From a virus (taxonomy: Duplodnaviria; Heunggongvirae; Uroviricota; Caudoviricetes), in the IMG/VR virus record IMGVR_UViG_2657244940_000009, positions 1-8,998 of that record: a stretch of 8,998 nucleotides of DNA; one strand, given 5' to 3'. This document shows positions 1,172 through 5,185 of the stretch, one piece after another. The position numbers and the translations under genes were made by a program. Under the pieces are notes generated by a model. The model made no database searches, was not told the origin of the DNA, and saw only the letters and a program-made list of their open reading frames with translations. How positions within the stretch are numbered: the first letter of the stretch is position 1; each line of letters starts with the position of its first letter.

Positions 1172-3115
1172 TTACGGGTTATTCACTTCCACTGTTATAC
1201 TTTCAATCAGCACCGTATACGTCGCCGCTTTTGTGATATCCGTTACACGTAATTTGTCTGCCGCAAAAGAACCTACCGGAGACTGCGACAGCATGAACGG
1301 TGCACCATCCTGACCATCAATCACCGGCGTCACCTGAATGCTGTTATTACCGGCAAAACGGAAGCCCAGCGTATGCCATTCGTTGTCAAATGCGCCGAAT
1401 GACCCCAGCTTCGTGTTCTGGTCAGCGTTACCCTTGTGGTACATCACGTTGAGGTCTGTGGCATCGCTCTGTACGTAAAACGACGCCAGCAGATTGTTAC
1501 CGGCATTACCTTCCAGTGTGACACCCTGAGGCAATGAAGAAACCGGCCAGTACAGCGCCAGTGCGTACTGATTAGCCGTAAGCGCGCCATCGAGTTTAAA
1601 ACGACAACTGACAAGACCACCTTTACCCAGCAGGTCCGCACCATTACCAGCATCATGCTCAAGGTACCAGGGGGCTCTTCCTGTTTCCTTGGTCAGTTTC
1701 ATTGCCTTACCCCCGCTGGCTCCGGCATCATCCACGATTTGAGCCTTGCCACCTCCAGCAGCCCAACCCTGTGGTGTCAACCGTCCTTCAGACTCAGATG
1801 CCCGGTAAGCAAATAGCGTACTCATCGTCGTGGTGTCTGCGGGTGGCGTGGACGGTTTTGATGGTGTATCAGGTGACGGCTTCTCATCCGGTGGTGTCAC
1901 GGTCTGCCCGCGCATCAATTCAGCCGTGCGCCCTGCATGGAGCATAATAGCTGAGGCCAGACGGTCTGAAATGACGCCCCTGCGTGCCCATGAGCTGAAA
2001 TGGCTGTCACGCTGTGTCGAAACAAAACTGCCCTGGGTTCGGGATGCTGCACCGTAATACCCGACAGCCACAATATCCGGGTCTTCCGCCGGAGCATTCG
2101 TTGGCGTGCTCTGTCCATTCTCATCCGTCAGGAACGGTACAAAGAAAATATTCTGTGCTTCCCTGCCCTTGTAACCGCCATATACCGCCTCATATTTATC
2201 GGCGTTAAGATTCTTCCAGTAATACGTGGTGTCACCACAAATCCACGGCACCGAGCCAGCACTTCCGCCAACACACTGTGCAGAATATGCAGCCATATCA
2301 GCCCTGAACTGCTGCACCATAGTGGTAAACAGGCCGCTGTGCTGCTGACTGCCGTCCGCAAGATCATTTTCCCCCTGCATCCATACCACGGCCAGAAGCC
2401 TGTTTTTCGGGTTCTTCGACAGCGCCGCTTTTGTACGGAAGAGAAAATCCTGATACAGCGGTTTACCCACTCCCCAGCGGGCTGAATTTGCCGATGCGCC
2501 AGACGTTTCGCTGAACGTGCCGTCATTACCCACGGTTAAACCAGACCCGCCACGGCAACAGGGCACCAGAAGAATCCCGGCATTCTGCGGGATATAAGGC
2601 AGCAGTTTTTTGGCAATATGCAGCCCCTGACCGACAGTCCCGTACTGGCCCTTACTCAGGTCTGCATGAGGATGGTTAAGTGCGCTCATGTCCTGAACAT
2701 CATGCAGACAGTGGTCTGCCGGAATAACGTCATTGTATGCACAGATATCACCACCCGGCGTCACAGTGCTGCGACGGGCCAGCTGCTTAATACGGGAGTC
2801 AGGGCGATCATAGGTCTCCGGCAGAGGAAGCCCCTCACCATAGGCCATACCGTTCGACTGCCCGGCCAGGGGAATAACGTAGTAATACTCCGGTTCAGTG
2901 GTAGCCACTCCCGGAGAGCCACCAGCCCCTGTGTCGGGCACAACCACAGGCGTGGTCACATCACCCTCTGCGGCAATGGCCTGCATCAGTGTATAAGGCG
3001 TGATAGCCACAGGACTGCCAAACGGCTGCCAGCCTTCCTTCAGTTTTTGTGTCAGTCGCTCCGCAAGGTCTGACGGCGACGCCGCCCTGACCACGTCATA
3101 GTGTTTAAATGCCAT
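1172..3115 (-). CDS. nanS-p: Prophage sialate O-acetylesterase NanS-p (N-terminal DUF1737-like region plus SASA/SGNH esterase), 647 aa
   Basis: Track ORF 1172..3145 starts at TTG; the ATG at 3115..3113 has a strong Shine-Dalgarno (GGGGAGGAATA-ATG) and gives MAFKHYDVVRAASPSDLAERL, the N-terminus I recall for Stx-phage NanS-p. GQSN motif (IPLAGQSNGMAYGEG) is the SASA esterase block. Position (downstream of Q/tRNAs, upstream of holin) matches Stx prophages. Confidence 0.85.
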   Translation of the reverse strand: MAFKHYDVVRAASPSDLAERLTQKLKEGWQPFGSPVAITPYTLMQAIAAEGDVTTPVVVPDTGAGGSPGVATTEPEYYYVIPLAGQSNGMAYGEGLPLPETYDRPDSRIKQLARRSTVTPGGDICAYNDVIPADHCLHDVQDMSALNHPHADLSKGQYGTVGQGLHIAKKLLPYIPQNAGILLVPCCRGGSGLTVGNDGTFSETSGASANSARWGVGKPLYQDFLFRTKAALSKNPKNRLLAVVWMQGENDLADGSQQHSGLFTTMVQQFRADMAAYSAQCVGGSAGSVPWICGDTTYYWKNLNADKYEAVYGGYKGREAQNIFFVPFLTDENGQSTPTNAPAEDPDIVAVGYYGAASRTQGSFVSTQRDSHFSSWARRGVISDRLASAIMLHAGRTAELMRGQTVTPPDEKPSPDTPSKPSTPPADTTTMSTLFAYRASESEGRLTPQGWAAGGGKAQIVDDAGASGGKAMKLTKETGRAPWYLEHDAGNGADLLGKGGLVSCRFKLDGALTANQYALALYWPVSSLPQGVTLEGNAGNNLLASFYVQSDATDLNVMYHKGNADQNTKLGSFGAFDNEWHTLGFRFAGNNSIQVTPVIDGQDGAPFMLSQSPVGSFAADKLRVTDITKAATYTVLIESITVEVNNP

Positions 3116-3203: not shown

Positions 3204-3234
3204 AAAACGAAAAAGGCCGCGCAGTTGCGCAGCC
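3204..3234 (-). terminator. Candidate intrinsic terminator or attenuator in the nanS-p leader
   Basis: Minus-strand stem GGCTGCGC / GCGCGGCC (8 bp, one G-U), loop AACT, followed by TTTTTCGTTTT. Confidence 0.45.
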
Positions 3235-3298
3235 TTATCACAGATGGTAAAAATCAGAACACGATAATAAAAATACCTGATGTATATTCATGCGACCC

Positions 3299-3326
3299 GC
3301 CCGCCACTCACTGCGGGCTTTTTTTT
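3299..3326 (+). terminator. Plus-strand intrinsic terminator-like hairpin (opposite to flanking genes)
   Basis: gcccgc (3299-3304) / gcgggc (3313-3318), 8-nt loop, then T8 (3319-3326). Confidence 0.45.
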
Positions 3327-3334
3327 GCCCATAG

Positions 3335-3361
3335 AAAAGCCCCTCCGGAGAGGGGCTTTTT
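3335..3361. terminator. Bidirectional intrinsic terminator
   Basis: Perfect 7-bp stem gcccctc / gaggggc with 4-nt loop, flanked by AAAA on one side and TTTTT on the other, so a T-run follows the stem on either strand. Confidence 0.6.
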
Positions 3362-3601
3362 ACAGTGGTAGTGTAGACAATTTTGCATGGTGCCGGGTGC
3401 CTCCCGGTGAGTTCAGTATCAGCACCTGAACCCGCACAGAAAGGATAAGGGTCGGTGACAAAACACCAGTTGCTGATTGCCCCTCCGCTTAGGGGGATTC
3501 ACCATGCCAGTTTCTTTTAACAAACTCCCCGCAAACCAGACAACAGTCAACCGCCTGAATTGTGAGGTATTTAAAAATTTCAACGGGTAACTGATACCCT
3601 G

Positions 3602-3763
3602 CTAATCGCCTGATGCTTTCTTTTTCAGCAACGGGAAAGCAACAACCACCACACCCGCCACCAGCACACCGTCAGCCAGCACTGACATTATCCGGCTGCT
3701 GAAGTCCACCATCACCACCATCACCACCAGAAACAGCAGGAGCGCAACCACAGCCAGACGCAT
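3602..3763 (-). CDS. Small hydrophobic protein, 53 aa, two predicted membrane helices; start 8 nt after the TerB-like stop
   Basis: Manual translation: MRLAVVALLLFLVVMVVMVDFSSRIMSVLADGVLVAGVVVVAFPLLKKKASGD. Below the ORF-track size cut-off. Weak Shine-Dalgarno and a repetitive GTG/CAC-rich sequence, so a chance ORF is possible. Confidence 0.3.
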   Translation of the reverse strand: MRLAVVALLLFLVVMVVMVDFSSRIMSVLADGVLVAGVVVVAFPLLKKKASGD

Positions 3764-3771
3764 TTTTACCG

Positions 3772-4203
3772 TCACAGATGATTCTCCAGACGAAGGCCCA
3801 GAACACCGGCAATCTCTTCCAGCACCTTGCGCTCTTCCGGCTCTATTTCGCCGTCTGCTTCGGCAATGGCCACCGCCACATCCAGCACGTCTTCCGCTTC
3901 ACGCGTATCGTGTTTCACATCCTCGATCTCACGTAACGCCGCTCGACGACCAATTTTAAAGTTCGTATCCAGCTGACCGATAATGGTTGCGCTAATCGCA
4001 TTAATTTCTGACGTAAACGCGGACAACGCAGGCTGGTTACGCAAGACCTGCTCGATCTTCGCTTTCTCTGAAGCCTCACATTCACCATCTGCATAGGCCA
4101 CCAGATAGGCAGCATTAATAACCGCCTGTGCCAGATCACGTTTCTCAAACTTTTTAATTTCCACTGCCGCTCGGCGGGCTTTTTTACCAAAAATACCAAA
4201 CAT
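3772..4203 (-). CDS. TerB-like (tellurite-resistance TerB family) domain protein, 143 aa
   Basis: Track ORF 3772..4275 starts at a non-ATG codon; ATG at 4203..4201 has AAGGAA 7-8 nt upstream and gives MFGIFGKKARRAAVEIKKF. Two TerB-like segments (AAYLVAYADGECEASEKAKIEQVL and VAVAIAEADGEIEPEERKVLEEIAGVLGL) resemble the helix-aDG-helix repeats of TerB as I recall them. Confidence 0.65.
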   Translation of the reverse strand: MFGIFGKKARRAAVEIKKFEKRDLAQAVINAAYLVAYADGECEASEKAKIEQVLRNQPALSAFTSEINAISATIIGQLDTNFKIGRRAALREIEDVKHDTREAEDVLDVAVAIAEADGEIEPEERKVLEEIAGVLGLRLENHL

Positions 4204-4371: not shown

Positions 4372-4446
4372 TGGAGCGGGTAGCGGGAATCGAACCCGCA
4401 TCATCAGCCTGGAAGGCTGAGGTAATAGCCATTATACGGTACCCGC
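4372..4446 (-). tRNA. tRNA-Gly (anticodon TCC), phage-borne, glyT-like
   Basis: Hand-folded: perfect 7-bp acceptor GCGGGTA/TACCCGC, anticodon stem TCAGC/GCTGA, loop CTTCCAG, T-arm GCGGG-TTCGATT-CCCGC, discriminator U, encoded CCA. Position 8 is C rather than the usual U. Confidence 0.75.
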
Positions 4447-4449
4447 ATA

Positions 4450-4525
4450 TGGTGCCGGCTACCGGAATCGAACTGGCGACCTGATGATTACAAGTCAGTT
4501 GCTCTACCATTGGAGCTAAACCAGC
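4450..4525 (-). tRNA. tRNA-Thr-like (anticodon TGT) with degenerate anticodon and T stems; possibly a pseudo-tRNA
   Basis: Acceptor GCTGGTT/AGCCGGC pairs with two G-U; canonical D-arm GCTC-CAATGGTA-GAGC; anticodon stem only 3 bp with loop CTTGTAA; T-stem has one mismatch; discriminator A; encoded CCA. Confidence 0.5.
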
Positions 4526-4530
4526 ATGTT

Positions 4531-4605
4531 TGGCGGGACAGCGTGGACTCGAACCACGATAAGAAGGTTAACAGCCTTCCGTAATGACCTTTATACGACT
4601 GACCC
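4531..4605 (-). tRNA. tRNA-Asn (anticodon GTT), phage-borne
   Basis: Perfect anticodon stem GAAGG/CCTTC with loop CTGTTAA; perfect T-arm CGTGG-TTCGAGT-CCACG; acceptor GGGTCAG/CTGTCCC with one mismatch; discriminator G; encoded CCA. Confidence 0.7.
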
Positions 4606-4651: not shown

Positions 4652-4696
4652 ATATGCCAATAGTGTTGCTCATTTGCTCAATGATGTCAACACGTC
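4652..4696 (-). promoter_or_regulatory. Candidate pR'-like late promoter / Q-utilisation region
   Basis: Consensus -35 hexamer TTGACA on the minus strand at 4690..4685, just after the Q stop; I could not identify a convincing -10, so this is positional inference from lambdoid architecture. Confidence 0.25.
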
Positions 4697-5185
4697 CTAT
4701 GCTACATGTTTAATTTTCTCTACACGTTTCCGGTTTTTAAACGCACTATCCAGAACCGGGTAAATCATAAACAACGAGGCATTAAGGATTTCGTCAACTT
4801 CCCGTCGACAGGTTGCGAGCGATGGTTTTTGAATGCGCCCGCCGCCCCGGCATAACATCTTGCGAGGTCTTGCGACGCAATGATAGTAAGATGCAATGGC
4901 GTGCCTGGAAGAACCATGAGCGTAGTAGCTGAGGAGGATGCCGAAGGCTTTCTTGTCAATGTACATGACGGAATCGACGACCTGAGAAATCAACATTCCA
5001 TCATCATCATTACACATTGGCCTTGTCATAACTCTTCCCGGCTCTACGCTCTCCATGAACTTCGCTATTACGCTGCTCATGCGCTTTTCCAGACGACCTG
5101 AATAAACCCATGCGCCCCACAGTTCAAGCCAGCCATTCAGCCACTCGTGCTGTTCTTTGGTGAGGTTTAGTTCTCTTATGCCCAC
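4697..5185 (-). CDS. Q: Late antiterminator Q (phage antitermination Q family), 162 aa; start codon uncertain
   Basis: WGAW motif and Cys/His cluster ([14 protein letters not shown]) as in Q proteins of 933W-type phages as I recall them; immediately downstream of ninI with a 10-nt overlap; track start is GTG with GGAG/AAGG upstream. Confidence 0.8.

Follow-up and report, generated by a model that had tools for sequence, protein, structure and literature searches.

Judging from its sequence, the 647-codon open reading frame described here is very probably an intact nanS-p gene, for a prophage-borne 9-O-acetyl-N-acetylneuraminate esterase. The gene sits in a conserved block of late genes, and its product likely hydrolyzes Neu5,9Ac2. 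It lies in an 8,998-nucleotide stretch of DNA (the window), which is the entire contig CDRA01000216.1 of the E. coli draft assembly GCA_000947375.1. We directly observed the domain architecture, the key residues, homology along the whole protein, conserved gene order, purifying selection, and a lack of stx, which together make this the best explanation for the gene (coordinates are collected in Table 1). The gene is already known and annotated, and its setting is the usual one. Its family is well studied, with published accounts of the enzymology, the location beside the stx slot, and the occurrence on many non-Stx prophages. Our analysis provides a useful correction, namely that the variable slot ends before STnc100 and nanS-p, with stx or TerB/DUF3927 as its swappable part. 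A possible further role, decoration of the capsids of non-Stx lambdoid phages by the type-A form of the DUF1737 domain, is considered below.

Table 1. Features of the window, with positions counted from its first nucleotide
Feature	Position	Strand	Basis or remark
Class II holin	242-457	minus	Conserved block
DUF826	533-802	minus	Conserved block
DUF1378	840-1022	minus	Conserved block
nanS-p	1172..3115	minus	647 aa, three-domain sialate O-acetylesterase; identical to RefSeq WP_044695088.1
C-terminal lectin-like jelly-roll domain (DUF6645)	1175..1822	minus	Residues 432-647; 6yp6 match
SGNH/SASA esterase domain	1940..2893	minus	About residues 75-392; structure match, alignment
His372 codon (NanS His301), predicted catalytic	2000..2002	minus	Alignment; in RDSHFS, 1994-2011
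Block I motif G85-Q86-S87-N88	2852..2863	minus	Alignment to NanS
N-terminal DUF1737 domain, type A variant	2951..3115	minus	About residues 1-55; Pfam, alignment
Terminator-like hairpins between STnc100 and nanS-p	3213..3353	minus	Consensus scans only
STnc100-family sRNA, directly upstream of nanS-p	3327..3536	minus	Rfam, 144 bits (gathering score 47)
Non-stx module (TerB-like and DUF3927)	3602..4203	minus	Profile matches, comparison with 933W
DUF3927 gene	3602-3775	minus	Where stxAB sits in 933W
TerB-like gene	3772-4203	minus	Where stxAB sits in 933W
tRNA Gly	4372-4446	minus	
Third tRNA	4453-4525	minus	Thr by annotation in the near-identical locus L001 (E. coli NMBU-W12E19)
tRNA Asn	4531-4605	minus	
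Antiterminator Q	4697..5185	minus	31% identity to 933W Q

Gene call, domains, and homology

The reading frame is intact, with an ATG start at 3115 and a stop codon whose last nucleotide is 1172. A mechanical list of open reading frames holds an alternative TTG start 10 codons earlier, but we regard the ATG as the better start because a good ribosome-binding site (GGAGG) lies about 5 nt upstream of it and the public gene record begins at the same codon. RefSeq names the protein “SASA family carbohydrate esterase”. It contains three Pfam domains, all of which score above their cut-offs: DUF1737 (PF08410; residues 3-50, 57.6 bits), SASA (PF03629; 45.8 bits, cut-off 24.8, with a best stretch that covers only residues 149-278), and DUF6645 (PF20350; residues 496-613, 229.8 bits). 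PHROG 143 covers the protein from end to end, and a tblastn search found it at 100% query coverage in 341 phage records. Two solved structures also match, namely E. coli NanS (3pt5; E 4.6e-113, residues 71-391) and the C-terminal domain of a NanS-p protein (6yp6; E 1.3e-98, residues 432-646), and both matches are far beyond chance. A search of the window with NCBIfam profiles gave no model for the esterase, and the naming of the protein therefore rests on the Pfam, PHROGs, and PDB matches together with the alignment.

For this alignment we compared the protein with the NanS-p of phage 933W, vb_24B_21 of phage Phi24B, the homolog from strain NMBU-W12E19, and NanS of E. coli K-12. Identity to the 933W and Phi24B proteins is 67% across all 647 residues; in the esterase domain alone it is 71% to these two and 55% to K-12 NanS. 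An earlier, sequence-only reading of this DNA had placed a NanS-p esterase with an intact GQSN motif at 1172-3115. Its coordinates are exact, and its identification of the protein agrees with both the SASA/SGNH domain found here and the full-length match to characterized NanS-p alleles. The motif is likewise as that reading described it, and both Ser87 and His372 are unmutated.

Catalytic residues, substrate, and selection

In chromosomal NanS, Ser19 and His301 are catalytic, Gln18 and a Gly contribute to the oxyanion hole, and there is no obvious catalytic Asp (PMC9063846). Ser87 of the window protein aligns with the nucleophile Ser19, and Gln86 with the oxyanion-hole residue Gln18. The Block I sequence AGQSN to which they belong is invariant in all 80 of the related loci that we collected from viral contigs. 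By analogy with NanS, the central SGNH type-II domain most likely hydrolyzes the O-acetyl ester of Neu5,9Ac2, either free or on mucin glycans, by means of a predicted Ser87/His372 dyad and an oxyanion hole made up of Gln86 and a backbone Gly. This de-O-acetylation would leave Neu5Ac, which, by homology, E. coli could take up and catabolize. The C-terminal jelly-roll domain would direct the enzyme to glycans. In Phi24B, the C-terminal residues Y510, Y515, Y540, and F611 are the proposed sugar binders (PMC10462455), and their counterparts Y517, Y522, Y547, and F617 are all retained in the window protein. In terms of biochemistry, 12 of 12 tested nanS-p alleles from EDL933 and O104:H4 were active esterases (PMC8065619); activity of the present allele is predicted by analogy with characterized alleles, to which its identity is 67%.

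This level of identity would leave room for an SGNH esterase that targets not sialic acid but some other O-acetylated glycan, such as O-antigen, capsule, or peptidoglycan, and possible action on acetylated LPS has been raised in a review (PMC8065619). The middle residue of block III might be read in the same way, as it is Asn in the window protein (QGEND) and Phe in NanS, 933W, and Phi24B. However, this position varies freely across the family (Phe in 49, Ala in 20, Asn in 7, and Gly in 4 of the 80 loci), so the Asn is unremarkable, and we dropped it as a candidate for a change in specificity. The tested NanS-p alleles are themselves diverse and all of them cleaved Neu5,9Ac2 (PMC8065619), and the sugar-binding aromatics noted above also argue against a different target. 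We consider a substrate other than sialic acid to be very unlikely, and O-acetylated sialic acid remains the preferred one.

The gene is under purifying selection. Pairwise dN/dS against seven alleles is 0.17-0.26 for the whole gene and below 0.35 in each domain. The prophage, for its part, appears to be incomplete. Homology to the complete NMBU-W12E19 prophage ends at 7661, inside a P22AR-type antirepressor gene, while homology to the chromosomal flank of ogt begins at 7660; at this flank in other strains, ogt is followed by fnr. The junction at 7660/7661 was present in none of the complete genomes searched, and it could reflect either a genuine deletion or inversion, or an assembly chimera of a short-read contig. 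On the truncated side the immunity and early region is missing, which makes it uncertain whether this strain expresses Q and nanS-p. It could be argued from this cut beside ogt that nanS-p is a non-functional relic, left open by chance in a decaying, defective prophage; the contig also ends in repeats, and alleles at least 99% identical to this one occur in only four complete-genome records. Against this, the gene is full length with all 647 codons, every catalytic and binding residue is intact, dN/dS is about 0.2, and the identical protein is present in seven independent draft assemblies, downstream of at least two different Q genes. A relic is thus the least probable of the readings we considered, and we give it almost no weight relative to that of an intact esterase gene.

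Gene order and the variable position

On the minus strand, the genes run in the order ogt, a 5'-truncated P22AR-type antirepressor, a KilAC antirepressor, ninG, a NinI-like phosphatase, and Q, followed by three tRNAs, the TerB-like gene, the DUF3927 gene, STnc100, nanS-p, DUF1378, DUF826, and the class II holin. The tRNA genes, at 4372..4605, number two according to ARAGORN and three according to Rfam. This places nanS-p among the late genes of a lambdoid prophage, between the antiterminator Q and the holin S.

Using blastn to compare this region with the Q-to-S region of 933W, we found one collinear block with 71% DNA identity. It starts 46 bp past the stxB stop codon in 933W and 37 bp past the DUF3927 stop codon in the window, and it spans STnc100, nanS-p, and the DUF genes as far as holin S. 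The exchange of stx for TerB/DUF3927 is therefore located upstream of the block that contains nanS-p. Rfam searches place STnc100 between stxB and nanS-p in 933W. In six of seven further loci it again precedes nanS-p, regardless of the genes that lie farther upstream. On the evidence of this collinearity, nanS-p is part of a conserved late backbone (STnc100, nanS-p, DUF1378, DUF826, and holin) and not content of the variable slot, and the swappable element that adjoins this backbone is stxAB, TerB/DUF3927, or something else. The sequence-only reading had held that the slot itself carries nanS-p. It was right that a non-stx module adjoins nanS-p, here the TerB-like and DUF3927 genes in the position of stxAB, but nanS-p lies outside of the swapped element.

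Predicted expression and release

The enzymatic activity and substrate discussed above are predictions, as are the routes by which the protein would be expressed and released. Immediately past the stop codon of Q, at 4685-4690, lies a perfect TTGACA that is accompanied by a weak -10 element and represents a candidate pR' promoter; a simple promoter scan of the window called no pR' site. Mitomycin C induction of Stx lysogens has been reported to raise nanS-p expression by 1-2.4 logs (PMC10462455). Taken together, the TTGACA after Q, the hairpins before nanS-p, and this induction point to late-operon transcription under Q antitermination. In this scheme, the late genes, nanS-p among them, probably share a promoter of the pR' type, and Q-modified polymerase would need to pass the hairpins at 3213..3353 before it reaches the gene. 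We also considered whether read-through from ogt might drive Q, and set this aside given a weak hairpin after ogt and a strong terminator at 7208-7229. The N-terminus of NanS-p has no hydrophobic stretch that resembles a signal peptide, so its release would depend on lysis. Lysis by the phage, or carriage on virions, would then bring the protein to its substrate outside the cell.

Absence of stx

A tblastn search of the window with Stx2A and Stx2B returned nothing better than E 2.6, and there is no stx remnant. Where a Stx-converting prophage would have stxA and stxB, between Q and the tRNAs on one side and nanS-p on the other, the TerB-like and DUF3927 genes are found. The sequence-only reading had called this context stx-negative, which is borne out for the 9-kb contig, the scope to which the term applies here as opposed to the whole genome.

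To see how usual this arrangement is, we surveyed 59 related loci on viral contigs, each with at least 2.5 kb of upstream sequence. In 48 of the 59 stx is absent; it lies within 4 kb upstream of nanS-p in the other 11, while TerB and/or DUF3927 occur in 18 and neither is present in 30. We obtained a similar picture from 5,426 complete E. coli genomes, in which a megablast search with the window allele found about 6,091 nanS-p-like places, spread over 1,123 genomes with a median of six in each carrier, and in which stx2 has 743 places in 602 genomes. The ratio of nanS-p-like to stx2 places is about 8 to 1, with stx2 as the one toxin type counted. Published work agrees with this. Seven active nanS-p alleles are known from EDL933 and five from O104:H4, all of them on prophages (PMC8065619), and of the copies of the sRNA PasA on chromosomes, where it flanks the esterase gene, fewer than 3% adjoin stx (bioRxiv 10.64898/2026.05.13.724894). 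On these grounds a stx-free setting for nanS-p is the ordinary one in E. coli and no surprise. The earlier suggestion that the gene is carried independently of stx is, in view of these counts and reports, not a new inference.

A possible role on the capsid

Another way to see NanS-p is as primarily a structural accessory of the phage, in which DUF1737 fixes the protein to the capsid and it is the virion, not the lysogen, that profits from the esterase and lectin domains. The gene would then be backbone rather than cargo, with roles such as mucus adherence, mucus penetration, or receptor destruction. This partly overlaps with the explanation of NanS-p as an esterase, and we regard it as possible, although the less probable of the two. 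It draws on recent work on Phi24B, whose NanS-p, gp84, was found to be an abundant and proteolytically processed virion protein (bioRxiv 10.64898/2026.04.10.717836). In that study, a hexamer formed by DUF1737 of gp84 sits as a plug in the central hexons of the T=9 capsid, and the domain has a capsid-anchoring loop with a Tyr42 “tooth”; the inter-domain SSP motifs are self-processing sites by proposal only (bioRxiv 10.64898/2026.04.10.717836). The location of nanS-p in the conserved late block, outside of the variable slot, fits with such a role. DUF1737 is also the most constrained part of the protein among type-A alleles, with dN/dS of at most 0.05 at a dS of 0.46-0.72, and the B (933W/Phi24B) and C types of the domain each go with one head module in our sample, a pairing that may merely reflect clonal copies of the same prophages.

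Other observations weigh against extending this to the protein described here. The head genes lie outside of the window, and we used the co-variation of DUF1737 subtype and head module as a proxy for capsid binding, among loci that are not independent. The type-A domain, to which the window protein belongs, is found with three terminase/portal types, and one identical 645-aa allele occurs with all three; the Phi24B terminase/portal type is absent among these three, again in a sample of non-independent loci. The closest full relative, the NMBU-W12E19 prophage, has an HNH-TerS-TerL head module (TerL of 553 aa), unlike Phi24B. Within the domain, residues 1-34 are 91% identical to gp84, whereas the half with the anchor loop is about 19% identical and three residues shorter. 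There is a Tyr at position 41, which MAFFT places off gp84 Tyr42. The inter-domain linkers read EGDVTTPVVVP and KPSPDTPSKPSTPP, neither of which holds an SSP motif. Finally, quasi-equivalence geometry suggests that a T=7 capsid would have no hexon on the three-fold axis, the only site that gp84 occupies on the T=9 capsid.

That the window protein decorates capsids as Phi24B gp84 does is thus a hypothesis. It is conceivable, if rather doubtful, that type-A DUF1737 might tether NanS-p to capsids of several head types among non-Stx lambda-like or HK97-like siphophages. If this were true, NanS-p would be a general virion-borne enzyme of lambdoid phages that binds mucus or modifies receptors, and any benefit to the host would be a by-product. 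The sequence-only reading had described nanS-p as a host-fitness gene. This is an assumption and one reading among others, and because the Phi24B homolog decorates the capsid (bioRxiv 10.64898/2026.04.10.717836), the label of host-fitness cargo should be treated with caution. An esterase of the NanS-p family, made with the late genes, remains our preferred account.

Comparison with known systems

Chromosomal NanS (YjhS, of the nanCMS operon; 3pt5) shares with the window protein a homologous esterase domain that has the same Ser/His dyad and oxyanion Gln. It is nevertheless a single-domain protein of 326 aa without a DUF1737 or lectin domain, and its gene adjoins nanC and nanM and is not on a prophage. 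The window protein, in contrast, has 647 residues, two extra domains, and phage genes as its neighbors.

Closer counterparts are found in the Stx2a phage 933W (z1466) and in Phi24B (vb_24B_21, gp84). Their NanS-p proteins have the same three-domain architecture in 645 aa, against 647 in the window, and share the GQSN motif, the catalytic His, and the C-terminal aromatics. The genes also occupy the same place, between Q and the tRNAs on one side and holin S on the other, with STnc100 before the gene. There are several differences as well. In the window, stxAB gives way upstream to the TerB-like and DUF3927 genes, and the tRNAs are Asn, the third tRNA (Thr in L001), and Gly in place of Ile, Arg, and Arg. 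The Q of the window is of a different type from that of 933W (31% identity), and AsxR was not detected in the window. In the NanS-p protein itself, divergence from the two phages is seen in the second half of DUF1737 and in each of the inter-domain linkers, and the SSP motifs are absent.

The nearest relative of all is the prophage of E. coli O10:H32 strain NMBU-W12E19 (locus L001). This is a complete prophage that carries cI/cro, O/P, and nin genes as well as a head module, whereas the copy in the window ends in the P22AR-type antirepressor gene beside ogt. From the antirepressor genes to the holin, the two are 98% identical at the DNA level and have the same TerB/DUF3927/tRNA arrangement, and their NanS-p proteins (WP_032184487.1 in NMBU-W12E19) are a single residue apart (I124T).

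Linkage of the STnc100 sRNA to nanS-p

The coordinates of the features considered here are collected in the table. An STnc100-family sRNA (Rfam RF02076) is flanked by DUF3927 and nanS-p in the window, and in the Stx2a phage 933W it is likewise located between stxB and nanS-p. As STnc100 also precedes nanS-p in six of seven other loci, the sRNA and the esterase gene behave as a linked unit. In another locus, nanS-p is immediately preceded by an array of four STnc100 copies in tandem (L011:8680-9795; 76.6-131.9 bits).

Features of the window
Feature	Position	Strand	Remarks
DUF1737 domain, type A	2951-3115	-	Compared with L013, L028 and L048
STnc100-family sRNA	3327-3536	-	RF02076, 144 bits
TerB-like and DUF3927 pair	3602-4203	-
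Third tRNA	4453-4525	-	Rfam, 49 bits
Candidate pR' promoter	4685-4690	-	Perfect TTGACA, directly after the Q stop codon
Prophage/chromosome junction	7660-7661		With 7246-7638 and 7741-8256
McaS sRNA, chromosomal	8603-8698	-	112.8 bits
IS1 copy	about 8756-8998		Contig end, after McaS

Exchange around and within the block

The TerB-like and DUF3927 pair is the commonest upstream module of nanS-p alleles with the type-A DUF1737 domain (17/32 sampled loci); judged by PHROGs labels, its predicted roles would be tellurite resistance and TciB-like cell-division inhibition or colicin resistance. In other assemblies (L088/L089), identical NanS-p, TerB and DUF3927 genes follow a DNA methylase gene and a Q of another kind, 131 aa long, which shows that mosaic exchange has occurred around this block.

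The N-terminal module of the nanS-p family is itself swappable, as a group of 683-692-aa homologues (L014:754-2808, L015-L025 and L042-L044) has the same esterase and lectin domains but begins, instead of with DUF1737, with an unrelated stretch of about 110 aa (MSDSKWKMLSAMPGEF...), for which we found no Pfam match and no informative PHROG match. Type-A DUF1737 is found with three different head-module types, and between the window and three other loci it shows almost no amino-acid change (dN 0.008-0.037 vs dS 0.46-0.72, noisy estimates from only 55 codons). This near-absence of amino-acid change across head-module types, despite such dS values, implies a putative conserved partner for the domain.

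Chromosomal end of the contig

The prophage comes to an abrupt stop within the gene for a P22AR-type antirepressor, which has 130 aa in the window and 224 aa in L001, the complete prophage of E. coli NMBU-W12E19. At this point the prophage overlaps by 2 bp with the sequence fused to it, which lies 80 bp past ogt, where fnr would normally come next. This junction is absent from every complete E. coli genome, and it could reflect a deletion, an inversion or chimeric assembly of the draft contig. The IS1 copy disrupts the AraC-family gene that is also interrupted by IS1 in strain SCU-176, pointing to a related host background.

Comparison with 933W

Rfam places the third tRNA between tRNA-Asn and tRNA-Gly; it is not reported by ARAGORN, and its counterpart in the near-identical L001 locus is annotated as tRNA-Thr. 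While AsxR was not detected in the window, 933W has it, and the 933W tRNA set (Ile-Arg-Arg) also differs from that of the window.
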